A DNA stretch of 64,000 nt from a virus (Duplodnaviria; Caudoviricetes): IMG/VR virus record IMGVR_UViG_3300032092_000001; one strand, given 5' to 3'. The position numbers and the translations under genes are program-made. Numbering within the stretch: position 1 is the first letter of the stretch; every line of letters begins with the position of its first letter. This document shows positions 24,116 to 52,196 of this stretch, piece after piece. The notes beneath the pieces are model-generated. The model was given only the letters and a program-made list of their open reading frames with translations, searched no databases and was not told the DNA's origin.

Positions 24116-25834
24116 TTAACTTATATTATAATTACCATTAAGATACATTTCCGCTTCAGAATTTCTTCTGTTAACTAATCCCTGTAATCCTAATGTTTTA
24201 AAATTTCTAATCTGTTCCGCAGCCCTTTTATGGTCTCCTTTCTTAACTGACTGAATGAAGTCAGATTGTCTAACCCCACCACATCCAGCATTAAACGCTA
24301 ATGACACTAATGCGTCAAATTGACCCTGAGTTATCATATAACTTTTAAGTCCTTTTGATTTCCATTCAGATAAAAAATTCCTAACACAGTCCGCAAACTC
24401 TTTAGCATCATTGTATAGTAATTTTAAAGCCCTTGTTTCATCTATAGTCATTCCCATTCTAACATCATCACCAGTGTGACCCCATCCAATAGTTGCAACA
24501 CCAACGCTGTCTTTATATGCTTGTAATGCCGGCTTGCCCTTTAATTTTGCCAATCCCTCGGCGTACTTAATATGGTCCCAAAAATCCTGACTAACTTTCA
24601 TTTTAGTACCATCTTGTAAATTACTTTCCTCAGGTACGTCTACAGGTTTTACAATTGGTTGTGGTTTATCATACTTTGTCATAGTACTATCCGACGCTGC
24701 GGTAATATCAGGCATTTTTATTTTTTGCTCATTAACTTCAGGTTTCAATACCGTCATGGACTCAGGAAATTCTTTACTTAAAAATTCTCTGTTTTTACCC
24801 TTATATGGAATATTTTGTAAAACGTATCTAATTGCATTTAAACCTGATACTCTCTTATCATTGGCATCCAATATTACCCAAGGGTGATTAACCGTTGAGG
24901 TTTTGTCAAATAATTTTTGTTTAAACTCTGAGAATCGGTCCCACATGTCTTGCATTTTCTCGTCATTAGGGGAGTATTTCCAATACTTTAATGGTGACGC
25001 TTGTCTCATCTGAAATCTAGTTGCCTGAGTCTCCTTATCAATTGAGAACCATAATTTAAACAAATAATCTCCATCTTTAACTAAGTCTTTTTCAAAGTCT
25101 TCAACGTTTTCCATAAAGTCTTCATATTCCTCTGGAGAACCGTATCCCATCACTGGTTCAACAAGTCCTCTATTATACCAACTTCTATCAAAGAAATTAA
25201 TCATTCCTTTTCTAATTTGACTTCTATATCTATCCCACCATGCTTTTCTCTCCTCAGGTGTTGGTATTCCCAATGCAATGATGTTGTAATATCTTGGATT
25301 TAAATTCTCAGTGTACTTTTTAATAGTTGAACCCTTACCCGCAGAATCTCTACCCTCAAAAACAATTATGACAGTTTTACCGGTACTTTTAATCCACTCT
25401 TGCATTTTAAGTAACTCAACTTGTAAATGATATAACTCCTCGTTATAAACTTTCTTTTTAATTAATGAAGGTTCTTGTGGTTCAAATGAAAACTCTTCAA
25501 AATCAGGTTCGTTACTTATGAAATCTTCTTTTTTTCTTTTCTTTAATACCTTTATAATATTTTCAAAATACTTGGTAATGTTTTTTTCTTTATTACCTTT
25601 TTTCATTAAAACATTTCTAACATTTCTCTCAAGTAAGTCAAAATTAATGGTTTGATTAAAACCCATATCCATAATATCATACAATAGAATCTCAAGGTTC
25701 TTTGTGTAGATATTATATTGTTTTAGAATATCCGCAATCTCATTCTCATATTGTTCTGTCGGTTTCTCCTCTTCGTTTAATTGAGTTCCGAGTAATTGTT
25801 TGTATCTGCTGATTTCAGAAATTAATTTTTTCAT
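24116..25834 (-). CDS. ppk2: Fusion: leader + polyphosphate kinase 2 + GH24 (phage lysozyme)
   Basis: PPK2: LQVEL.K.Q, FEGRDSAGKG, FDRSWYNR, KLWFSI; GH24: AEG...AYKDSVGVATIGWGHT, QFDALVS.AFN.G, GL.NRR..E; single uninterrupted frame. Confidence 0.85.
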   Translation of the reverse strand: MKKLISEISRYKQLLGTQLNEEEKPTEQYENEIADILKQYNIYTKNLEILLYDIMDMGFNQTINFDLLERNVRNVLMKKGNKEKNITKYFENIIKVLKKRKKEDFISNEPDFEEFSFEPQEPSLIKKKVYNEELYHLQVELLKMQEWIKSTGKTVIIVFEGRDSAGKGSTIKKYTENLNPRYYNIIALGIPTPEERKAWWDRYRSQIRKGMINFFDRSWYNRGLVEPVMGYGSPEEYEDFMENVEDFEKDLVKDGDYLFKLWFSIDKETQATRFQMRQASPLKYWKYSPNDEKMQDMWDRFSEFKQKLFDKTSTVNHPWVILDANDKRVSGLNAIRYVLQNIPYKGKNREFLSKEFPESMTVLKPEVNEQKIKMPDITAASDSTMTKYDKPQPIVKPVDVPEESNLQDGTKMKVSQDFWDHIKYAEGLAKLKGKPALQAYKDSVGVATIGWGHTGDDVRMGMTIDETRALKLLYNDAKEFADCVRNFLSEWKSKGLKSYMITQGQFDALVSLAFNAGCGGVRQSDFIQSVKKGDHKRAAEQIRNFKTLGLQGLVNRRNSEAEMYLNGNYNIS

Positions 25835-42032: not shown

Positions 42033-42048
42033 TTAATATTTATATATA

Positions 42049-42402
42049 ATGAAATACCTTATCACCGAATCACAAATTGATAGAGTAGTGTCCATATACT
42101 TGAATAATCAGGACTTTGTGATATATGACAACAAGAAGAAATTCAATAATTATATATATTTCTTAAACAGTGAGTCAGATAGGGAATCGCAGATTAGTGT
42201 TTATACTAACAACGCTTTTGGTGAAGTTAGGAATTGGGTGTTTGTAAATTCTGATTTGATTGAGGAATTATCTACCTTCTTCTCCATAGATAGATTGGAT
42301 TGTTTGAATATAATCAAAATGTGGGTTAATAATACTTTGGGTATTAGTGATAGTACGATTTGGGATGGTCCATATGATTACAGATTAATGGTTAACGAAT
42401 AA
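42049..42402 (+). CDS. ITESQ-YLDNQDF family paralogue 1
   Basis: MKYLITESQID...YLNNQDF...WVNNTL. Confidence 0.8.
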   Translation: MKYLITESQIDRVVSIYLNNQDFVIYDNKKKFNNYIYFLNSESDRESQISVYTNNAFGEVRNWVFVNSDLIEELSTFFSIDRLDCLNIIKMWVNNTLGISDSTIWDGPYDYRLMVNE

Positions 42403-42812
42403 TGAAAGTAATAATCACTGAAAGTCAAGGTAAGAAAACTCTTAAACCATTATTGGCGAAATTTGGTATGCGTACTCTGTGTAAAATGACAGGTAAGTCA
42501 GTTAAAGATGTTATTAATGAAGCAGGTATTAAGGGAACTAAAGAAGATATTATCTTTCTAACAAAAACTATAATTGAGAATGACCTCTCATCCGTCTTAA
42601 CATATTGTAATTATAATATCATACCCACTCAGTACTCTATGGATTTGGTTGTCTATATACCTAAGCCGGCTCCTGAAAATGTGGGAAGGTATATGTTTGA
42701 CCAAGGTACAAGGAATGTGTATAGAGATGCTATCTCCGAGGCTTTATATAAATTAGGTGGCGGTTTAATTAAAGGTCATAATATTGAGGTTCATAATACA
42801 GGTAACTGTTAA
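42402..42812 (+). CDS. ITESQ-leader protein
   Basis: MKVIITESQ. Confidence 0.75.
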   Translation: MKVIITESQGKKTLKPLLAKFGMRTLCKMTGKSVKDVINEAGIKGTKEDIIFLTKTIIENDLSSVLTYCNYNIIPTQYSMDLVVYIPKPAPENVGRYMFDQGTRNVYRDAISEALYKLGGGLIKGHNIEVHNTGNC

Positions 42813-42828
42813 CTAATATTTATATATA

Positions 42829-43161
42829 GTGAAATATCTTATAACCGAATCACAGATAGACAAAGTAATCTTTAGGTACTTGGACAATCAGGACTTTATT
42901 CCAATAGAAAAGGGTGATAATATATACTTTGTAAATTCAGAAGGAGATGAATATGCTCAAATCAGATATGATAAAGATGATGGTTGGTGTTATATATCTT
43001 GGAAGTTAGTTAATGAAATTTATTCTTTCTTTTCTTTGGAAGAATATGATTCCGAACAAGTTATTGGTAGGTGGGTTGAGAATACCCTACAGATGAGGGT
43101 CACTGACACCGTGCCCATTTTTAATCCGGATAATCCTTCGTTGATAATACCCTCTAACTAA
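42829..43161 (+). CDS. ITESQ-YLDNQDF family paralogue 2 (GTG start)
   Basis: MKYLITESQIDKVIFRYLDNQDF...WVENTL...IPSN. Confidence 0.8.
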   Translation: MKYLITESQIDKVIFRYLDNQDFIPIEKGDNIYFVNSEGDEYAQIRYDKDDGWCYISWKLVNEIYSFFSLEEYDSEQVIGRWVENTLQMRVTDTVPIFNPDNPSLIIPSN

Positions 43162-43873
43162 TAGTAATAATCTTCCACTCCCCATTGTAATCTTCCACAA
43201 GACAAGTGGAGTTCTCACAAAAATCACCTGAATTCATATAGTCATTCTCTAACTTCGGATGATGAATATGTCCACACACCGCAACATCATATCCCTTCTG
43301 TTTCGTTAACCCTTTTGCGTTTTCCTCAAAATCAGATACAAAGTTAATTGCCCCTTTAACAGATTGCTTTATTGTGTTTGCCAGTGAATGATATGGTAAG
43401 TTAAACCACTTTCTTATTTTGTTGTATAGGGTATTAAACTTAATGACAATATCATATGACCATCCACCAATTACTGCTAACCATCTTGCTTCCATTATAA
43501 CGAAATCCAACACATCCCCGTGAAAACAAAAGTATGTTCTCCCATCTATTCCTTCGTGCACATATTTCCTCACAATCCTTATATTGTTTAACTTAAACGG
43601 AATGAAATCTTTTAGGAAGTCATCGTGGTTTCCCCTTATATAAATCACCTTTGTGTCCTTCTCTGACATCTTCATAAACTTCCTGAATATCTTGGTGCAA
43701 TCCTTTGTCCATTTACCATTCCCCTTTAATGCCCAACCATCTATTATATCTCCGTTTAATATTAACTTATCCGCTTGGTTTTCCTCTATGAACTTTATTA
43801 TCTTATCCGTTTGTGATTGTCTTGCACCCAAATGTAAATCACTCATTATGATTGTTCTGTATCTCATTTCCAA
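43154..43873 (-). CDS. Calcineurin-like metallophosphoesterase, UDP-2,3-diacylglucosamine hydrolase (LpxH)-like
   Basis: SDLHLG, GDIIDG, GNHD, HGD, GHIH, NSGDF. Confidence 0.8.
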   Translation of the reverse strand: MEMRYRTIIMSDLHLGARQSQTDKIIKFIEENQADKLILNGDIIDGWALKGNGKWTKDCTKIFRKFMKMSEKDTKVIYIRGNHDDFLKDFIPFKLNNIRIVRKYVHEGIDGRTYFCFHGDVLDFVIMEARWLAVIGGWSYDIVIKFNTLYNKIRKWFNLPYHSLANTIKQSVKGAINFVSDFEENAKGLTKQKGYDVAVCGHIHHPKLENDYMNSGDFCENSTCLVEDYNGEWKIITIS

Positions 43874-44568
43874 TATGAATTATGGTTGGAAAAATATCCC
43901 TTGTTATTTCTGTTGAAGAATGACTGTATCATTAACTTTGTCATATACCATAATCCCTTATTCTCAAATCTTCTTGGTAATGTGAATATGGTTTTCCTAT
44001 ATACCTTGAACTTATTTGTCTTTATCTGCTTTGATAGTAAGTAATCCTCCGCAACCTTTGCTTCTTCATCAAATCCATTTAGTGAATTGAATGTAGATTT
44101 CCTTATTAACATAAATCCACCGAGACAGAATGGTGTAATATATCTTGTTATTCCCTGAATTAAATCAAATGTCCTAAATACATAATTGTATTTTCCATTT
44201 GTTGTTCTTACCTTTGTTGTCAGTAAATCCAACCTTTCTTTTGTCATCATATACATGCACTCTTGTAACAAGTTTGTGTCAAGTATCATCATGTCCGCAT
44301 CCATAAACAATACAAACGGAGTTTCAGCTCGTTCTGCCCCGTTATTTCTTGCTTTGCTAGGTAATCCACCCTGAATGATGTCAAGATTGAAATAATCCCT
44401 GTTTCTGTTCTCCAAATGGTATGTTGTTCCATCATCCGATGAGTCGGAAACAATAACCTTAACTCCGTCAATACCATTTTGGAAATTTAATAGTGTTATA
44501 GTTTGATTGATAGTTATCCCCTCGTTCTTACAAGGTATAACAATGGTTAATAACTTTGATAGTTCCAT
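43864..44568 (-). CDS. Glycosyltransferase family 2
   Basis: IVIPCKNE, VSDSSDDGT, ARN.GA, FMDAD, GGFMLI..GFDE...EDY. Confidence 0.85.
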   Translation of the reverse strand: MELSKLLTIVIPCKNEGITINQTITLLNFQNGIDGVKVIVSDSSDDGTTYHLENRNRDYFNLDIIQGGLPSKARNNGAERAETPFVLFMDADMMILDTNLLQECMYMMTKERLDLLTTKVRTTNGKYNYVFRTFDLIQGITRYITPFCLGGFMLIRKSTFNSLNGFDEEAKVAEDYLLSKQIKTNKFKVYRKTIFTLPRRFENKGLWYMTKLMIQSFFNRNNKGYFSNHNSYWK

Positions 44569-44677
44569 TTATATAAGTATTGGAAGTAAAGACCAAACCA
44601 TATTATCATATTCTTATGAAATTATTAACTCAATATGTATAGTTCAATTTTATACTTATCTTTGTATTTATTATCAT

Positions 44678-44995
44678 ATGAAGATTGAGAATAAAGTTAA
44701 TGCAATTGTAAAACTAATTAATACATTATACTCACCTGACGAGATTAAAGTTAGAAAGAGTGAATATGATGATGAGATATTAATTGATGTTTACTTTTCT
44801 CATATTGATGATTCATATATAACCAACTCTGACTATTATGACCTTAAAAAATTAAAACAACAAAATTTTGAGGGTGAGATTAGAAGGACGATACAGGACT
44901 TCTTGAGTATTAAAACAAGCGGATTAAACCCACATACAGGTTTCTCCCCATACGAGGTTCACGGTATAACAATAGACGTAAGATTAACTAAATGA
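44678..44995 (+). CDS. Hypothetical protein
   Basis: Start MKIENKV after TATCTTTG and TATTTAT. Confidence 0.7.
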   Translation: MKIENKVNAIVKLINTLYSPDEIKVRKSEYDDEILIDVYFSHIDDSYITNSDYYDLKKLKQQNFEGEIRRTIQDFLSIKTSGLNPHTGFSPYEVHGITIDVRLTK

Positions 44996-45321
44996 AATAC
45001 CTTATAACAGAATCACAAATAGATAGAATAATCTTTAGGTATCTTGACAATCAGGACTTTATTCTTGTTGGTAATGGTCTCAGTTTATTTTTTATTAATT
45101 CTGAGGGTGATGAATCAGCTCAAATTAGATATAATAAAGATGATGGTTGGTGTTATATAAACCACGATTTAATTAGGGAGATTACCTCCTTCTTTTCTAT
45201 CAAATCATATGAAGCTGAAAAGATTATCAGTAAATGGGTTGAATATGTTTTGGAGATGGAAGTTACTAACATCGGTAAACCTGGATATGTGACCTCAAAC
45301 ACACTATACTATTCTATATGA
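44992..45321 (+). CDS. ITESQ-YLDNQDF family paralogue 3
   Basis: MKYLITESQIDRIIFRYLDNQDF. Confidence 0.8.
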   Translation: MKYLITESQIDRIIFRYLDNQDFILVGNGLSLFFINSEGDESAQIRYNKDDGWCYINHDLIREITSFFSIKSYEAEKIISKWVEYVLEMEVTNIGKPGYVTSNTLYYSI

Positions 45322-45629
45322 AATACCTTATAACAGAATCACAATTTGACAAAGTAATATTTAGATACTTAGACAATCAAGATTTTATTCAGATAGAAAA
45401 AGGAAATAAAATATACTTTGTAAATTCAGAAGGGGATGAATATGCTCAAATCAGATATGATAAAGAATATGGTTGGTGTTATATACATTACAAGTTAGTT
45501 GATGAAATTTCTACCTTCTTTTCTTTGGTACGAGATGATTCTAAAGAAGTTATTGGTAGATGGGTTGAGAATACCATCCAGATGAGGGTCACTCACACCA
45601 TAATATGGGTATATATCCAGGTGGAATAG
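45318..45629 (+). CDS. ITESQ-YLDNQDF family paralogue 4
   Basis: Near-copy of 42829; TAG stop lies at the end of a 30-nt spacer-like insert. Confidence 0.8.
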   Translation: MKYLITESQFDKVIFRYLDNQDFIQIEKGNKIYFVNSEGDEYAQIRYDKEYGWCYIHYKLVDEISTFFSLVRDDSKEVIGRWVENTIQMRVTHTIIWVYIQVE

Positions 45630-45663
45630 GTTGAGAATACCCTCTAACTAATATTTATATATA

Positions 45664-45996
45664 ATGAAATACCTTATAACAGAATCACAATTAGATAAAG
45701 TAATCTTTAAATACTTAGATAATCAGGACTTCATTCAGATTGAGAAGGGTGATGGTGTATACTTTGTAAATTCAGAAGGTGATGAATATGCTCAGATTAG
45801 ATATTTTAAAAAGGATAACAAATGTGTCATATATACAGGATTAATTGATGAGGTATCTTCTTTCTTTTCTATGCAAGGTTATGATGCTAGAGAAACTATA
45901 GGTAGATGGGTTGAGGAGACCTTAAAGGTAGATATTGATTATTGTTTGTGGGCATATAACATTAAATCTGAGTGGATGCAGATTCCGTCTAATTAA
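45664..45996 (+). CDS. ITESQ-YLDNQDF family paralogue 5
   Basis: MKYLITESQLDKVIFKYLDNQDF...IPSN. Confidence 0.8.
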   Translation: MKYLITESQLDKVIFKYLDNQDFIQIEKGDGVYFVNSEGDEYAQIRYFKKDNKCVIYTGLIDEVSSFFSMQGYDARETIGRWVEETLKVDIDYCLWAYNIKSEWMQIPSN

Positions 45997-46009
45997 TATT
46001 TATAATAAC

Positions 46010-46366
46010 ATGAAAGTATTAGTCACCGAATCTAAATTAAAAACATTTATTAAGAACAAATTAAATATTGACTTCACAGGCCGTGTGGAGCTTGACCCGA
46101 GCATATATAAAATACTGAATGATTTTGATTTCTATTTTACTTACGATGGTTTACGAAGAAGACAATTAGGTGATAACTATGGTCCGATGTATCTGATAGA
46201 ATTGGATGATAATCATAAGGTATTATATCAAATGAATTATAGTTCAAACCACCCATTGATTCTTGATAATAGAGGTGATGGATATGAAGAGTCCGACTTT
46301 ATGAATTTACTTGGTATCTCCGCTCTTGGGATAACATTAGAACAATTCCTTGACCTATACATATGA
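46010..46366 (+). CDS. VTES-leader protein
   Basis: Start MKVLVTESKL after TATTTAT. Confidence 0.7.
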   Translation: MKVLVTESKLKTFIKNKLNIDFTGRVELDPSIYKILNDFDFYFTYDGLRRRQLGDNYGPMYLIELDDNHKVLYQMNYSSNHPLILDNRGDGYEESDFMNLLGISALGITLEQFLDLYI

Positions 46367-46662
46367 AATACATTATAACAGAATCACGATTTGATAAAGC
46401 AGTATTTAAGTATTTGGATAATCAGGACTTTATTAAGGTTAACAAAAAAGAAAACATATTCTTTCTTAATTCTTCAGATGATAAATTATCGGATGCTCAA
46501 ATCGCATATGTTAAAACTGATGGTGAGTGTTACATAAAATATGAATTAATGGTAGAGATTTCTGATTTTTTTTCTATTGATGTATATGAGGTCAATAAAA
46601 TCATTGGTAGATGGTTTGAAGATACTCAACAAAGAAGAGTATCATCAATCCATTGGGTGTAA
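46363..46662 (+). CDS. ITESQ-YLDNQDF family paralogue 6
   Basis: MKYIITESRFDKAVFKYLDNQDF. Confidence 0.8.
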   Translation: MKYIITESRFDKAVFKYLDNQDFIKVNKKENIFFLNSSDDKLSDAQIAYVKTDGECYIKYELMVEISDFFSIDVYEVNKIIGRWFEDTQQRRVSSIHWV

Positions 46663-46674
46663 TATTTATTCTAT

Positions 46675-47046
46675 ATGAAATATATTATCACAGAATCACA
46701 ACATAAGTTAATCACCGAGCTTGAAAGAACTTGGAGAAATGTTGAGTATACTGAACAATATGAGAAACTTAAACATAAACTTGTTCCTTATTTTGAGAAG
46801 TTGGTTGACTCATATGATGAAAGTGAATTTAGAATTGGTTTATTTGATTCTGAAGGAAAACTAATGATGTTGTATATAAAACAAAGTGGTGAATTATATT
46901 ATAGTAGACACCTTGATAATATGTATGGTGACGCTTTTCCTCATCCCATTTGGCAAGTCCACGGCGATTTCATTCTATCAGATGTATTTAACATATACTT
47001 CCCCGACTATGAAGTTAAATCAGTTAAAAGTGTAACATTCTCATGA
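46675..47046 (+). CDS. ITESQ-leader protein, distant family member
   Basis: MKYIITESQHKLITE. Confidence 0.75.
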   Translation: MKYIITESQHKLITELERTWRNVEYTEQYEKLKHKLVPYFEKLVDSYDESEFRIGLFDSEGKLMMLYIKQSGELYYSRHLDNMYGDAFPHPIWQVHGDFILSDVFNIYFPDYEVKSVKSVTFS

Positions 47047-47384
47047 AATACCTAATCACCGAATCACAACGAGATAAAGCCGTATTCAAATACTTGGATA
47101 ATCAAGATTTTGAAATATCTAAAATTGGTGCCAGTACATACTTTAAACACCCTGATGATGACGGGTTTGCTCAAATTAAATATGGTGGTAATCACGCTAA
47201 TAATGAATTGTGTTTTATCTATATAGATTTAATTAAAGAAATTTCTTCCTTCTTTTCTCTTAACGATTATCAATCTACCAGAGCTGTTGGACAATGGGTT
47301 AAGAAAACCCTGAACTTGGAGGGTCAAATGTCCAACAAGATAATGCAACTCAAATCGTCATTAAAAATACCAACTGAATATTAA
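47043..47384 (+). CDS. ITESQ-YLDNQDF family paralogue 7
   Basis: MKYLITESQRDKAVFKYLDNQDF...WVKKTL...IPTE. Confidence 0.8.
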   Translation: MKYLITESQRDKAVFKYLDNQDFEISKIGASTYFKHPDDDGFAQIKYGGNHANNELCFIYIDLIKEISSFFSLNDYQSTRAVGQWVKKTLNLEGQMSNKIMQLKSSLKIPTEY

Positions 47385-47420
47385 TTTGTAGTTCCACAAT
47401 TTTTGTCGTATCTTTGGCTT

Positions 47421-48020
47421 ATGGTAACAGATAAGATAAAACAATACATATTCAAACGTCTATACAAAGAGTTAGGTAATGCGGAAATAATTCCATACAA
47501 TAATTCCATATGGTTTATTGATAGAAATGAAAGGTATTGGTATTTTGAACTTGAAAATAACGGAAATCTTTATTGGAGATATAATTATTTTACAAATTTT
47601 TTCTCTTGGTTCTCTTTGGAACCTAATCAGTTTGAACCAATTATATCTGAATGGGTGGAAGAGGTATTAAATCATAAGGTATCCACAACAGGAAACCAAG
47701 GCCATGATAGCGGATTCTGGGTGGAAGATGTATTAAATCATAAGGTATCTACAACCGTCCCCTACTTGACCATTGACAATGTCCAGGTGGAAAAGGTATT
47801 AAATCATAAGGTATCTACAACATGGTCAGGTCACTCAACCCAACCAAATATGGTGGAACAGGTCTTAAATCATAAGGTATCAACAACTATTCCTGTGAAT
47901 TTGGGAATGGGTCAGCGGGTGAAATATGTCTTAAATCGTAAGGTAGAAACAACAAAAAGCTTTGGAGCTCCCAAGCACTTTCAGGTGGATAAGGTATTAA
48001 ATGAAAACCCCACTGAGTAG
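47421..48020 (+). CDS. Divergent family member without the ITESQ leader, carrying an in-frame 22-aa repeat array
   Basis: Start MVTDKIK after TATCTTTG; VE.VLNHKVSTT five times plus a partial copy, separated by unrelated 10-mers. Confidence 0.75.
   Translation: MVTDKIKQYIFKRLYKELGNAEIIPYNNSIWFIDRNERYWYFELENNGNLYWRYNYFTNFFSWFSLEPNQFEPIISEWVEEVLNHKVSTTGNQGHDSGFWVEDVLNHKVSTTVPYLTIDNVQVEKVLNHKVSTTWSGHSTQPNMVEQVLNHKVSTTIPVNLGMGQRVKYVLNRKVETTKSFGAPKHFQVDKVLNENPTE
47654..48002. CRISPR. CRISPR-like array inside a CDS: 5 full 36-nt repeats, 1 partial repeat, 5 unique 30-nt spacers
   Basis: Consensus GGTGGAANAGGTATTAAATCATAAGGTATCNACAAC at 47654, 47720, 47786, 47852, 47918 and partial at 47984; exact 66-nt period; no cas genes in window; repeats degenerate. 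Confidence 0.5.
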
Positions 48021-48069
48021 CGAATTCAATGGGGTTAATGTAGCCTAAACTACAGCGGTCCTAAGCCCG
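48006..48069 (+). ncRNA. Twister-ribozyme-like core (incomplete match)
   Basis: TAATGTAGC (48036) and CGGTCCTAAGCCCG (48056-48069) match twister conserved blocks; hairpin AACCCCA/TGGGGTT; the P2-GA-T1 strand was not found. Confidence 0.3.
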
Positions 48070-48096
48070 TTTCTTTAATGTTTTTATAGGTCCATA

Positions 48097-48510
48097 TTAA
48101 TTACTCTTCCCTGTTCCTTTATGTATTAATCTTAAACAATCAGGTGATATGTTATCAAATGTAACTATATGGTGTTTGTAGTCACCACCCTCAAAATGTC
48201 TATCTTTATACCAAGTAACACCCGCACATTCTGTATTAATTACCCATATATCATCGTCGTAAGTTGAATCAAACATTTGTTTCTTATCAAATGAATCTGT
48301 CGCAAATATAGATGGTTTACATTCCACATCACCTCCCACATGTTGTTGGTAACAATCCCCCACATACGTTTGTAAACCTGTAAGTTCTATGTTCTCTCTC
48401 CATATAGGGTTTGATTTGTGAACTACAAATTTACCAGGTGTATATTCATCTCCTGATGGAGAATATATTTCTTCCCTTAATATTCTTCTTATTGTTTCTT
48501 GTAGGTTCAT
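48097..48510 (-). CDS. LQE-leader protein with ADP-ribosyltransferase-like fold
   Basis: HKS...NI..TGL...IFAT...IWVI...I.P..L pattern of H-x-S/T ART (Tpt1/DarT-like) families. Confidence 0.45.
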   Translation of the reverse strand: MNLQETIRRILREEIYSPSGDEYTPGKFVVHKSNPIWRENIELTGLQTYVGDCYQQHVGGDVECKPSIFATDSFDKKQMFDSTYDDDIWVINTECAGVTWYKDRHFEGGDYKHHIVTFDNISPDCLRLIHKGTGKSN

Positions 48511-48511
48511 A

Positions 48512-49039
48512 TTACATACTTTTTTTAATCCTGTCTCCAACTTTTTGAAAGAACTCTAATAAATTTTCTTCAAGTTCTTCATTAAATTCTACATAGTCAT
48601 CACCATCGTGTAAGTCAAATGAATGAACGTTATAGTCCTCATCAGTATACATTGTTACATAATATTCTTCACCATCAATAAAGAATTCACCAATATGTTT
48701 ATATTCAACTGGGTCTTCGTCCCACTCTTGGGTTTCGTTATAAATGAATTTTACATCATAATCATCAACAATATCATTAAATTCGTAACCTGAATCAATA
48801 CTCACAATATCTTCCAATTCGTTGTCAGTAATATCTTGTGATTTATTATGTAAATATTTTTTTTCGGCCTTGGTTAATGACTCCATTCCGAATTGATTAA
48901 TTTTATCTAAAATACGATTGGTTAATTCATCATTTTCATTGATGACCCCCATCATTGATTTTATTCTTGATATTTGTTCTTGTAGTTTCATATTAGTCTC
49001 CTCTTTAAGTATTCTTCTTATGTGTTCTTGTAGGTCCAT
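48512..49039 (-). CDS. Protein with double leader and DUF6576-like helix pair
   Basis: MDLQEHIRRILKEE then MKLQEQISRIKSMMGVINE; RILDKINQFGMESLTKAEKKYL. Confidence 0.65.
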   Translation of the reverse strand: MDLQEHIRRILKEETNMKLQEQISRIKSMMGVINENDELTNRILDKINQFGMESLTKAEKKYLHNKSQDITDNELEDIVSIDSGYEFNDIVDDYDVKFIYNETQEWDEDPVEYKHIGEFFIDGEEYYVTMYTDEDYNVHSFDLHDGDDYVEFNEELEENLLEFFQKVGDRIKKSM

Positions 49040-49040
49040 A

Positions 49041-49913
49041 TTATTCGGAATATAAATAAAAAAAGAATTTAAATGGGAAATAACTTGTGATAGTTGAACC
49101 AATTTCTTTAATAAAGTTTTGTTTTACCTTATTAAAATTTTTGGGGTTATCTATTGCGAATTGTCTATCATAAAATATATGAACGTTATAACCTCCAATC
49201 CTTTCATCATATTCAAACTCAACACGTTTAACTGCCGGTATTTCAAGTGTGTTAATTAAACGTGCAGCTTTCTTTTCAAAATATTCTCTTTTACTTTCAG
49301 TTTCTTCCCTTAATACTCTAACAATACTTTCTCTCATAGGACTGTAACCCATATTGTCATCTAACCTATCATCCATATCTTGTCGTAGTTTAGGTAAAAA
49401 ATTATCCATTATAATTTCATATACACTTGGTAAATAAACTTTTTCATACCAACTAAGTAAATCATCCACATTACTAAAACCCTCAACTTCGTCAAGTTGT
49501 TCGTAGTAATCTCCACCTCCTTCAATCTCAGCAATAAGGGTATCATTAGAGGTATCAACCAACGAATACCAATCAGTTTCAACAGGAGTCCACGTCATAC
49601 CATCCCAAAAAGGAGTCGCCATTACCCATACTGTTTCAACCATATTAGGTAAGAAGTGTTCCCCATAAAATTTACCTTCCCAATAAACAACACCATCAGA
49701 ACTTGTTGAAATCTTAAATTCTTTATATTCTGTCGGTAAATTTCCGTTATTAATATTTTCAATTATTATTTCATTAGCCAACCCAATATTAGATTCAATT
49801 CTCATCCCAACCATTTTCACAAGTTTGGTTAATGGAATACCCAAAGCTTCTTTGGTTTTCCAAAGACCTAACTCATCAATTAACTTTAATATTTTATCTC
49901 TTCCTTTAGTCAT
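49041..49913 (-). CDS. Two-domain hypothetical protein
   Basis: Internal MRESIVRVLREE leader-like junction. Confidence 0.7.
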   Translation of the reverse strand: MTKGRDKILKLIDELGLWKTKEALGIPLTKLVKMVGMRIESNIGLANEIIIENINNGNLPTEYKEFKISTSSDGVVYWEGKFYGEHFLPNMVETVWVMATPFWDGMTWTPVETDWYSLVDTSNDTLIAEIEGGGDYYEQLDEVEGFSNVDDLLSWYEKVYLPSVYEIIMDNFLPKLRQDMDDRLDDNMGYSPMRESIVRVLREETESKREYFEKKAARLINTLEIPAVKRVEFEYDERIGGYNVHIFYDRQFAIDNPKNFNKVKQNFIKEIGSTITSYFPFKFFFYLYSE

Positions 49914-50967
49914 TATTACTTAATCTTTTTATTTCAGCATTACGAAGTTTCTTTAAATACATATCTTCAATATACCCAGGTTCATTACCTTCATATCTTA
50001 ATAAATCATTTCTTTTAAACAAAGTTCCTTTCATAATAAACTCAATCATCTCATCTTGAGTAACTCCTTCAGGTATTTCAGTAACTGGTGGGACACATAC
50101 ATCAACTCTGTCTGTAAATGATAATTCATCAATAGATATATCATCCCTACCCATTTCATTTATTACATTATCAAAAAAATTATCTTCAAACCATTCTTCA
50201 ATTAAGTAAATAAGATAATTTTTTCTAATAGGTATATAGTTTAATATATCATTAACAAACTCTTTGGGTATAGATAAAAATGACTCCATGAATTTTCTTT
50301 CAGATGTTGGTCTTCGGTCATCAGTTTCTTCAAAAAACAATGCTAAATTCATCATTTTTTTACCATTTTTACAAAACTCAATATCGTGTCTTGTTTTATA
50401 ACTTTCAGTGTGATACATATTCATATCTGAAAAAATCTTATTCAACCTATCTAATATAAGTTTTTCAGTTTTCTCATTTGGTTTCAAGAATTTCCTACTT
50501 ACTTCTTCTTGTAATACTTGTCTAATATGTTCTTTCAAAAAATTATTCTCATTCATATCTTCTTTCTTTTTTGTTTCAACTGGTTTGACTTTGAACCAAC
50601 TAAATGATAAATATTTTGGGTATTTACCTCCGTGTATTGAATTGAATACCGATAATAGTATTTCTTTAAGTGTGTCAAGCCAACCGTCATTTATACCAAC
50701 CAAATCTCCAAAAGTGTATTCATCATAATCAGTTCCAAATTCAGGTACTGGTGAGTAATCATTGTATTTTCTCCATTGTTCACCTATCCAATCAGCATCA
50801 ACATAAATGTCACCATCCATATACAAATAATTCATGTTGTCATTTAATCCAGCACGAAATATTTCAATACCTTCAAACCACCAAGGGAAATTTTGGGATA
50901 GTTTCTTATTCAATACTTTATTGAATATTTTTAATTGTGGTTCGGTTAAATTAAGTGACTCTTTCAT
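49906..50967 (-). CDS. Two-domain hypothetical protein
   Basis: LNLTEPQL N-terminus; internal LKEHIRQVLQEE junction. Confidence 0.7.
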   Translation of the reverse strand: MKESLNLTEPQLKIFNKVLNKKLSQNFPWWFEGIEIFRAGLNDNMNYLYMDGDIYVDADWIGEQWRKYNDYSPVPEFGTDYDEYTFGDLVGINDGWLDTLKEILLSVFNSIHGGKYPKYLSFSWFKVKPVETKKKEDMNENNFLKEHIRQVLQEEVSRKFLKPNEKTEKLILDRLNKIFSDMNMYHTESYKTRHDIEFCKNGKKMMNLALFFEETDDRRPTSERKFMESFLSIPKEFVNDILNYIPIRKNYLIYLIEEWFEDNFFDNVINEMGRDDISIDELSFTDRVDVCVPPVTEIPEGVTQDEMIEFIMKGTLFKRNDLLRYEGNEPGYIEDMYLKKLRNAEIKRLSNND

Positions 50968-50978
50968 TGTATAATTCT

Positions 50979-52196
50979 TCAATCTTCTTTATGTATACCT
51001 TTATAATATACATCATATAATACTATTTCATATAAATTATTAAATATGTATTCAGGTAATTCCGAGTAGGCCAAGTTTATAAGTCCGAGATATTTTCTAT
51101 CATTATCAAATCTTTCTCCTGTTATACCACCCTCACCAAAATACTGAATTTCGTAATTCCTATTCCCATTGTTAGTCTTAACGCTATACATTAAAGACAA
51201 CATCTTATCACCACTAACATAATCACTTAACCATTGTGATACCACATGTTCGGCAGTATCATCTAAGAATTGGTATTTAACACCTTTAGGTAGTGCGTCT
51301 AAATCAAACTTCCTTCCTAATTGATATGGACTTAAATTAGACATATCTAAGAAATTAAATAGTCCTTGTTTTTCAATAAGTTTTAATGCCTTACTCTCAC
51401 TTTCTTGAAGAGGTTTCTTTTTCTCTTCATACCACCATTTACTTTTGTTATACGACTCAAGTGTTTCAGTATTGAAACTAATTCCAGCTTTGAATTCAGG
51501 AAAGAATTCACGAATAACAGACCTAACATTACTCAAAGTATTATGAAATCTATCTGACTCTTCACCTGAAAACGAACCTTTCATTAAAACGGTAACATGA
51601 CATTGTGTTCCATAATCAGTATTGTAGATATTAACCTCAACGTCGTGGAAATTATCAGTAAGAATACTTTTATCAAATCTTGCTTTAACAAATGATGCGA
51701 CTATTTTTTCTAATTTACTATTACTATCCATAGAGCGAATTGACTCATCATTACTTTCACTAATAGTCGTGTCTTTAGGAGTAATTGCAAAATAAACGTT
51801 GAAGCCGGCTATTTTAGTATTCAATCCAAGTTTTGTCTCAAGTATATCTTCTAACCTGTGTTCAAATGTATAGATATCCGCAGTTTCAAATAATTCCTTT
51901 GGTAATTTGTGATAAACTTGTATACCATAATATATATAGAAATTATTAACCTCATCATAATCACTACGACTTTCCCTGAAATACTTATTTAGTTCAGGTT
52001 TTAACTTAATGATAACTCTACCTTCCAATGCATCACCAACTACCTCAATACCATTAACTCCGTAGACCGAATCTAAATAGGGATAATCTTTAATCAGTTT
52101 TTGAGCGTCTTTTACAATAACTTTTTCAAGTCCTGTAAAGTCACCAGTCTTCACCTCTCGTGATTCGGTCAAAACTTTCCTGATTAATTCTTTCAT
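50979..52196 (-). CDS. Three-domain hypothetical protein
   Basis: MKELIRKVLTES; internal TISES and PLQES junctions. Confidence 0.7.
   Translation of the reverse strand: MKELIRKVLTESREVKTGDFTGLEKVIVKDAQKLIKDYPYLDSVYGVNGIEVVGDALEGRVIIKLKPELNKYFRESRSDYDEVNNFYIYYGIQVYHKLPKELFETADIYTFEHRLEDILETKLGLNTKIAGFNVYFAITPKDTTISESNDESIRSMDSNSKLEKIVASFVKARFDKSILTDNFHDVEVNIYNTDYGTQCHVTVLMKGSFSGEESDRFHNTLSNVRSVIREFFPEFKAGISFNTETLESYNKSKWWYEEKKKPLQESESKALKLIEKQGLFNFLDMSNLSPYQLGRKFDLDALPKGVKYQFLDDTAEHVVSQWLSDYVSGDKMLSLMYSVKTNNGNRNYEIQYFGEGGITGERFDNDRKYLGLINLAYSELPEYIFNNLYEIVLYDVYYKGIHKED

Follow-up and report, generated by a model that had tools for sequence, protein, structure and literature searches.

Results

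In a 64,000-nucleotide (nt) stretch of viral DNA (Duplodnaviria; Caudoviricetes; IMG/VR record IMGVR_UViG_3300032092_000001), hereafter called the window, one gene encodes a 199-residue protein whose 3' half is an array with the geometry of a CRISPR locus, read through in frame. We consider it likely that this is a real, translated phage gene and that its 3' half was built stepwise by integrase-type insertions, on which selection and recombination then acted. The findings described below point to a hitherto undescribed route by which foreign DNA is written into protein, and full-text searches of the literature returned no description of such a translated CRISPR-like array.

Between 47654 and 48002, five 36-nt repeats (consensus GGTGGAAGAGGTATTAAATCATAAGGTATCYACAAC) and a truncated sixth alternate with five 30-nt spacers, and every start-to-start spacing is 66 nt (Table 1). 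These positions and spacings had been given in an earlier reading made from the letters alone (hereafter the sequence-only reading) and hold on recount, as do its observations that every unit stays in frame, that the repeats decay towards the 3' end (1, 1, 1, 3 and 8 mismatches to the family consensus from repeat 1 to repeat 5) and that the spacers are richer in guanine and cytosine (GC) than their surroundings, at 43-50% against 31.7% for the whole window and 27% for the N-terminal domain (N-domain) of the same gene. The open frame starts with the ATG at 47421 and ends at 48017. The sixth copy, at 47984, keeps the repeat sequence for 19 nt and then leads into the stop codon (48018-48020). The array is absent from the output of Tandem Repeats Finder, as just 36 of each 66 nt are repeated. 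Near-identical direct repeats of 23-50 nt with unique spacers of like size, by which canonical CRISPR arrays are recognised, are present here and in 37 related arrays; where such a locus has an AT-rich, non-coding leader and a non-coding array, however, a conserved and folded protein domain here lies directly upstream.

The array is kept readable

Since protein databases favour open frames, related arrays were sampled as DNA, by searching IMG/VR with a 20-nt piece of the repeat and parsing the arrays irrespective of open reading frames (ORFs). All 250 of the 250 repeat-to-repeat spacings in this sample were 66 or 72 nt, and hence multiples of three, the 72-nt units arising from a 6-nt in-frame insertion inside a repeat. 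An in-frame stop was present in 1 of 87 independent spacers, as compared with the 35.7% expected of random 30-mers from donor-like bacterial contigs (binomial P ~1e-15), while the other five frames carried stops in 21-53 of the 86 unique spacers of the first set. The five stop-free spacers of the window could by themselves be due to chance (~0.1 by estimate), but chance is ruled out across the 37 related arrays. The one spacer with a stop belongs to L070, a close relative of the window gene, in which spacer 3 (L070:3402-3431) contains an in-frame TGA and is followed by six perfect units, and the homologue P0153 ends in a repeat in the +1 frame; therefore, insertion does not guarantee an open frame, and it is selection that restores one. 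The TGA of L070 runs straight into an ATG (TGAATG), where the gene caller opens a second in-frame ORF. Translation may restart at this point, in which case the rest of the array is possibly still read. By these counts, the array is translated, or at least kept open, under strong selection, and an RNA function cannot explain the purge of stops.

Cassettes turn over as in a CRISPR array

The 10-residue cassettes encoded by the spacers behave as units that come and go. From 120 homologues, 329 distinct cassettes were collected, which fall into 272 unrelated clusters, and their pairwise identity is bimodal, being either random or 8-9 of 10. Cassettes common to several genes keep their order, with gaps of whole units. 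The share of singleton cassettes falls across the homologues from 0.49 at the 5', domain-proximal position to 0.19 at the 3', distal end, which bears out the polarised gain at the 5' end that the sequence-only reading had proposed to look for in orthologues. Spacer GC declines along the array from 0.46 to 0.33 (rho -0.30, p 0.002) while mismatches in the repeats become more numerous in the same direction (rho 0.47, p 4e-7), both of which are consistent with units that enter at the 5' end and are older the further they lie from it; polarised gain with decay of the repeats at the opposite end is likewise a feature of canonical CRISPR arrays.

The composition of the cassettes is foreign. Mean spacer GC is 0.420 against 0.31 for the phage, and stop-free 30-mers of donor-like bacterial contigs have 0.424; third-position GC of the spacers is 0.39 in a genome of 31% GC, again graded by position, and the amino-acid make-up of the cassettes resembles that of translated random DNA. 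The repeats, for their part, are conserved beyond their protein sequence, as sites encoding the same residue use the identical codon in 85% of cases in the repeats and in 66% when the N-domains of those gene pairs are compared. Recombination also acts on the arrays: the window shares spacer 1 (30/30), spacer 2 (29/30) and the tail with L064, and the DNA of the two N-domains is just 81% identical.

The repeat encodes the end of a protein domain

A word-based protein search returned 714 homologues, all of them unnamed and metagenomic, whose lengths step by 22 residues. Their common plan is a conserved N-domain of ~90 residues and, after it, a number n of units, each made up of 12 constant residues (VEEVLNHKVSTT, or a variant particular to the lineage) and exactly 10 variable ones, usually with a conserved tail. 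A profile search of 1.8 billion representatives extended the family to 521 clusters, including array-less members of ~100-115 residues and members with decayed arrays, and related jumbo-phage contigs (up to 241 kb) hold three or four array genes each. The AlphaFold2 model of the N-domain is confident (predicted local distance difference test score, pLDDT, 93.5; predicted template modelling score 0.82), whereas the full-length AlphaFold model was poor (pLDDT 47.6) and was not used. The last helix of the modelled domain continues into repeat 1, and therefore the repeat is the domain's own coding sequence and not an imported element. The model thus presents the repeat as the native C-terminal motif of the domain, and the array-less paralogues upstream of the gene end in WVExxLxxxVTxT, the same motif as that encoded by repeat 1.

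No solved structural relative of the N-domain fold was found, and its matches in BFVD were only uncharacterised proteins of uncultured phages. Three of these entries (A0A6J5L9L5, A0A6J5L9N2 and A0A6J5L6U7; 329, 263 and 176 residues) are listed in UniProt as uncharacterised, from 'uncultured Caudovirales phage', and have N-domains that are 64-69% identical. Pfam and PHROGs gave no match for the array protein or its neighbours.

Two spacers of sister arrays match bacterial chromosomes

Spacers that are copies of other DNA, as canonical CRISPR spacers are, were recognised in two sister arrays; the window's own five had no match in the searches of phages, plasmids, bacterial genomes and metagenomes that the sequence-only reading had called for. 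A 24-mer of spacer 1 was without a match in 185,579 species genomes, a 26-mer of spacer 3 without one in JGI metagenomes, and all five spacers without one in IMG/VR; no spacer was matched when the window array was compared by BLAST with 400 genomes of Flavobacteriales and 400 of Flavobacterium, cultured phages gave nothing, and plasmids gave chance matches only. An origin of the spacers within the phage itself was rejected, as they match nothing else in the examined loci or in five related phage records.

Arrays of relatives, compared with bacterial genomes, yielded one good match in ~1,100 genome searches. Among three arrays of L009 set against 400 Flavobacterium genomes, the one match (27/30) starts at spacer base 1; the spacer, L009:370-399 on the minus strand, is the 5'-most of its array, and the Flavobacterium match lies antisense in an MFS transporter gene. 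The same spacer is the 5'-most of the array in L009, L014, L056 and L058. When metagenomes were scanned with its shared 22-nt core, two phage arrays came up together with seven contigs that hold a homologous gene but no array. One of the latter, an 11.7-kb contig (GC 0.38) whose other genes are typically bacterial, is identical to the spacer at 30/30 positions (L061:252-281); the match ends exactly at both spacer borders, within flanks that are unlike the repeat, and two other contigs match at 28/30. The transporter gene with this match has homologues in several bacteria, and by our estimate the probability that the match arose by chance is ~1 in 100 or less.

The second case is L071, in which a window-type N-domain, repeat 1 and a 30-mer (L071:577-606) lead directly into bacterial moaE. 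Two bacterial contigs, L072 and L073 (with xseB, tauE, moaD and moaE; GC 0.42-0.43), contain the 30-mer at 29/30 and are ~95% identical to L071 from exactly spacer base 1 onward, as opposed to 27% upstream. L071 is most simply read as an assembly whose path changed over at a 30-mer common to a phage array and a bacterial chromosome. On the evidence of these alignments, two spacers of sister arrays appear to be of bacterial chromosomal origin (MFS transporter and moaE). In L074 and L075, the contigs of P0134 and P0132, an N-domain, repeat 1 and 30 nt are also followed by unrelated sequence (GC 0.41 and 0.35, respectively), and in L075 a minus-strand, metallophosphoesterase-like ORF reaches into these 30 nt. 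Here, too, the assembly may have changed over at a 30-mer that a spacer and its source have in common.

The repeat resembles a type VI-B repeat at its ends

The sequence-only reading had likened the array geometry to that of Bacteroidota type VI-B and some type II arrays. The first part of this comparison is real: the phage repeat matches the type VI-B repeat of Flavobacterium columnare (sequence taken from PMC5395568) at 24/36 positions in the same orientation, a score reached by 0 of 200,000 shuffles, and the identity is concentrated at the ends (7/10 at the 5' end, 5/14 in the middle, 12/12 at the 3' end). The second part is weak, with the type II-C repeat matching at 15/36 at best. The array-bearing gene matches the VI-B repeat at 23-24/36, as opposed to 12-20/36 for the corresponding stretch in its seven array-less paralogues. 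As RNA, the phage repeat (ends GGUG...CAAC) forms a 5-bp outer stem only (-5.4 kcal/mol, z -1.3), in contrast to the strong inner hairpin of the F. columnare repeat (-10.9 kcal/mol, z -2.5), and thus departs from type VI-B direct repeats, which combine 36 nt and paired GUUG...CAAC ends with a stable inner hairpin. Rfam returned no CRISPR-DR or other family. Contigs from RNA libraries hold repeat-spacer units of relatives, one of them spanning the end of the N-domain and repeat 1, although such contigs cannot show transcription or processing.

No Cas family was found among the large window ORFs scanned, and the five related phage records (45-82% complete) contained no reverse transcriptase (RVT_1). 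Repeat-like matches in Flavobacteriales were set aside as single-copy stretches of gpmI and not arrays. In L029, L030 and L036, at about position 1497 of each, a single-copy 36-nt stretch with 25-28/36 identity to the phage repeat encodes IEDLLNHMKSTT in phosphoglycerate mutase; this likeness is probably due to chance, though it is also present at the protein level.

The gene and its surroundings

The features of the gene are collected in Table 1. Its carrier is an uncultured freshwater jumbo phage, and the window is phage-like: GC is ~31%, a ClpB-like ATPase, a thymidylate synthase and one transfer RNA gene are present, and most genes are without a family. In a single minus-strand ORF (24116-25834), polyphosphate kinase 2 (PPK2) is fused to a phage lysozyme domain. 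The promoter-like TATCTTTG before the gene fits TAnnTTTG, the -7 promoter element of Bacteroidota. Five of the seven upstream paralogues were found by hmmsearch at E values of 6e-11 to 2e-6 and two weakly, at 0.006 and 0.015. On the other side, four successive minus-strand genes (48097-50982) carry a motif of the type LQE(H/T)IRR(I/V)L(K/R)EE, placed either close to the N-terminus or deeper in the protein. DUF6576 is matched by one of the four, which look like a second multi-copy family adjoining the array gene. The DNA at 48006-48081 recurs unchanged downstream of the L064 and L070 arrays, and an Rfam search by E value of 47000-48600 gave no twister ribozyme match there. At least 16 studies have lake or freshwater metagenomes that contain DNA near-identical to the window. 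Lake samples X3, X4 and X6, searched with window positions 47200-48200, hold many further arrays with the same repeat and other spacers, the MFS-derived one included, and therefore several related phage lineages co-occur in them.

Table 1. Features of the array gene and its flanks (window coordinates)
Feature	Coordinates	Strand	Remarks
Seven array-less N-domain paralogues in tandem	42037..47381	+	~100-120 residues each; upstream of array gene; hmmsearch with N-domain profile
TATCTTTG, promoter-like motif (TAnnTTTG)	47409..47416	+	5 nt before ATG; putative, read from sequence
Coding sequence, 199 residues + stop: N-domain, then array	47421..48020	+	identical (100%) to called protein P0001
Folded N-domain	47421..47690	+	residues 1-90; helix, four strands, two helices; last helix (68-83) runs into repeat 1
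Repeat 1	47654..47689	+	encodes VEEVLNHKVSTT; modelled as native C-terminal motif of domain
Spacer 1	47690..47719	+	GNQGHDSGFW; 50% GC; 30/30 in L064; external source not found
Repeat 2	47720..47755	+	
Spacer 2	47756..47785	+	VPYLTIDNVQ; 50% GC; 29/30 in L064; no viral match
Repeat 3	47786..47821	+	
Spacer 3	47822..47851	+	WSGHSTQPNM; 43% GC; no match in metagenome and viral scans
Repeat 4	47852..47887	+	3 mismatches to consensus
Spacer 4	47888..47917	+	IPVNLGMGQR; 47% GC; old cassette common to many homologues; no viral match
Repeat 5	47918..47953	+	degenerate, 8 mismatches; encodes VKYVLNRKVETT
Spacer 5	47954..47983	+	KSFGAPKHFQ; 43% GC; old cassette common to many homologues; no viral match
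Terminal partial repeat (19 nt), conserved tail ...VLNENPTE and stop	47984..48020	+	tail and DNA 3' of it identical in L064 and L070
Terminator-like hairpin and T-run 3' of gene	48054..48081	+	consensus scan only

Discussion

In the course of events that we propose, the ancestral gene would have encoded a domain of ~100 residues ending in the motif WVEEVLNHKVSTT, and the 36 bp encoding this terminal motif would have come to serve as the repeat. Foreign 30-bp pieces, mostly of bacterial (host) chromosomal DNA, would enter beside the domain-proximal repeat, with the 36 bp duplicated at each event, so that a 30-bp insert and a 36-bp duplication would together add 66 bp, or 22 codons. Units that brought a stop or a broken frame would be removed by selection, aged units would drift to the composition of the phage while their repeats decay, and recombination inside repeats could delete cassettes or swap them between phages. 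The product would then be, we infer, a carrier of variable C-terminal peptides. The inserting enzyme may well be a host CRISPR adaptation integrase, namely a type II-C-like Cas1-Cas2, which has a 36/30 ruler and would recognise a repeat-like site in trans. In F. columnare, a VI-B array without cas1 acquires its spacers in trans through the type II-C Cas1-Cas2, and spacers of host origin occur as well (Hoikkala et al., 2021; PMC8092290). A further step, which we put forward tentatively as one possibility among others, is that CRISPR-type spacer acquisition serves the freshwater jumbo phages of Bacteroidota as a means of diversifying proteins, in which random host 30-mers are written in frame into small multi-copy proteins and give heritable, recombining libraries of 10-residue peptides for selection, for example for host takeover or counter-defence.

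The sequence-only reading had named insertion of foreign peptide-coding DNA by Cas1-Cas2-like integration as the first of three explanations, and of these it fits best; selection for translation, CRISPR-like turnover and the two bacterial spacers of sister arrays speak for it, with an integrase as the presumed agent. Several observations count against it. A source was found for 0 of the 5 window spacers, in limited searches; the protospacers are only two, and one of them depends on the assembly-switch reading of L071. The acquisition motif of F. columnare, its protospacer-adjacent motif (PAM; TTTANNNNN upstream or NNNNNTAAA downstream; PMC8092290), is absent beside both. A degenerate repeat pattern retrieved only the arrays of F. 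columnare and F. covae from 185,579 species genomes, none of them closer than 24/36. No Cas1 was found in the five related phage records, 45-82% complete, in a search aimed at Cas1 and not at Cas2 or effectors. True VI-B arrays (L019, L020) have spacers of 29-31 nt and spacings of 65-67, and the uniform 30 nt seen here therefore needs strong purifying selection. Recombination alone can account for much of the sharing of cassettes, and the reading gives no reason for the selection on translation of the array.

The insertions could be real and yet be the work of an unrecognised phage-encoded enzyme, as a dedicated diversification system in which host Cas1-Cas2 has no part. How systematic the arrays are (3-4 genes per phage, hundreds of lineages with their own repeat variants, a constant period of 22 residues) would suit such a system, as would the strict maintenance of frame, the missing F. 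columnare PAM at two protospacers and the fact that most genes of these phages belong to no known family; we nevertheless regard it as unlikely, since it comes without a candidate gene, neither Cas1 nor a reverse transcriptase was found in the five related records, themselves 45-82% complete, and exact 36/30 geometry with an end-weighted likeness to a Bacteroidota repeat is what the ruler of a host integrase would be expected to produce. Less probable still is a function mainly as RNA, the second explanation of the sequence-only reading, by which a cas-less phage CRISPR array or decoy would be transcribed and its transcript processed or bound by host Cas13b or Cas9, aiming these nucleases at host genes or soaking them up, with translation secondary. 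The 24/36 likeness to a type VI-B repeat in the sense orientation of the CRISPR RNA, the host-chromosome spacers (one of them antisense to a host mRNA), the conserved synonymous sites of the repeats and the phage-borne arrays and repeat decoys that are known elsewhere would all agree with it; but a purge of stops and frameshifts (P ~1e-15) is unneeded by a function in RNA only, the repeat folds weakly and lacks the inner hairpin of VI-B, no CRISPR-DR family of Rfam matches, and the repeat is the native protein motif of the family.

The third explanation, an ordinary tandem protein repeat, would have a 22-residue unit duplicated, its loops diverged under diversifying selection and its constant part homogenised by gene conversion, with the bacterial matches put down to coincidence or assembly artefacts. 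A period that is a multiple of three in an open frame, the evident recombination between repeats, cassettes that differ by single substitutions and decayed arrays that evolve like ordinary protein sequence are all what it would predict. We nevertheless consider it very improbable. Graded divergence and a genome-like composition, the marks of such repeats, are replaced by cassettes of 42% GC that are either near-identical or unrelated, with no mass of intermediate similarity among the 329; their third-position GC is high for a genome of 31% GC, and their amino-acid make-up resembles that of translated random DNA; and both the 30/30 match to a conserved bacterial gene, at its two ends, and the second junction, in L071, stop exactly at spacer borders. 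A precursor of a ribosomally synthesised and post-translationally modified peptide was also considered and set aside, as the cassettes have no conserved residues and modifying enzymes were not seen.

If stepwise insertion is indeed how these genes grew, the chemistry of CRISPR immune memory would also write coding sequence, and a protein would grow by ruler-defined, captured units that are then tested by selection. Hypervariable proteins would then have a new origin, in addition to diversity-generating retroelements and cassette conversion. An integrase would be seen to act naturally on a phage genome during infection, and Cas1-Cas2 'molecular recording' into an expressed gene would have its equivalent in nature. 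On the practical side, array finders will call these genes CRISPR arrays, and hosts could be wrongly assigned on the strength of the host-derived spacers. The abundance of the family (714 homologues; lake metagenomes of at least 16 studies) leaves it open to experiment, given a cultured host.

Comparison with known systems

The closest known counterpart is the type VI-B array of F. columnare and F. covae (PMC8092290; PMC5395568), which likewise combines a 36-nt repeat, identical at 24/36 positions that are concentrated at both ends, with a 30-nt spacer, has no adaptation genes beside it, receives new units at its upstream end and includes spacers from the host chromosome. The phage array differs in that its 'leader' is a protein domain and its repeat a coding sequence with the frame kept open, in that its spacers are always 30 nt whereas the spacings in L019 and L020 are 65-67, and in that it lies in a phage, lacks the inner hairpin of the repeat and does not show the F. 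columnare PAM at two protospacers. Growth at a repeat-resembling, non-CRISPR site, with the target stretch duplicated at each integration, is described for neo-CRISPR arrays, which off-target integration by Cas1-Cas2 spawns in E. coli (Nivala, Shipman and Church, 2018, Nat Microbiol; PMC6698737; bioRxiv 10.1101/148544). Those arrays, however, are reported from E. coli with over-expressed Cas1-Cas2, and involve no phage, reading frame, selection or widespread family of hundreds of lineages. Neo-CRISPR arrays are defined by their dependence on Cas1-Cas2 and by a target site that is like the junction of leader and repeat; the 36/30 geometry, the repeat-like ends and the closer likeness of the array-bearing gene than of its paralogues to the VI-B repeat would be only indirect signs of this here.

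Like the phage arrays, cas-less CRISPR arrays and decoys of viruses have no cas genes, a repeat resembling that of the host and some spacers that target host genes. Such cas-less or mini-arrays and repeat decoys have reportedly been described by Medvedeva and co-workers in 2019, Al-Shayeb and co-workers in 2020 and Camara-Wilpert and co-workers in 2023. They are non-coding RNAs, and none has been reported to be read in frame within a protein. Hypervariable coding cassettes in conserved frames are otherwise a property of cyanobactin precursors of the patE type and of diversity-generating retroelements. The latter are characterised by a reverse transcriptase and a template repeat that differs at adenines; the phage cassettes are whole foreign 30-mers and not mutated copies, they match nothing else in the phage genomes, and no template repeat was found there, nor a reverse transcriptase in the five related records. 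From patE-type precursors, the phage genes differ in that no modification enzymes are evident and no residues are conserved in the cassettes. With both, they share constant flanks around short hypervariable coding cassettes, flanks whose conservation extends to the nucleotide level, and the targeted diversification of a protein.

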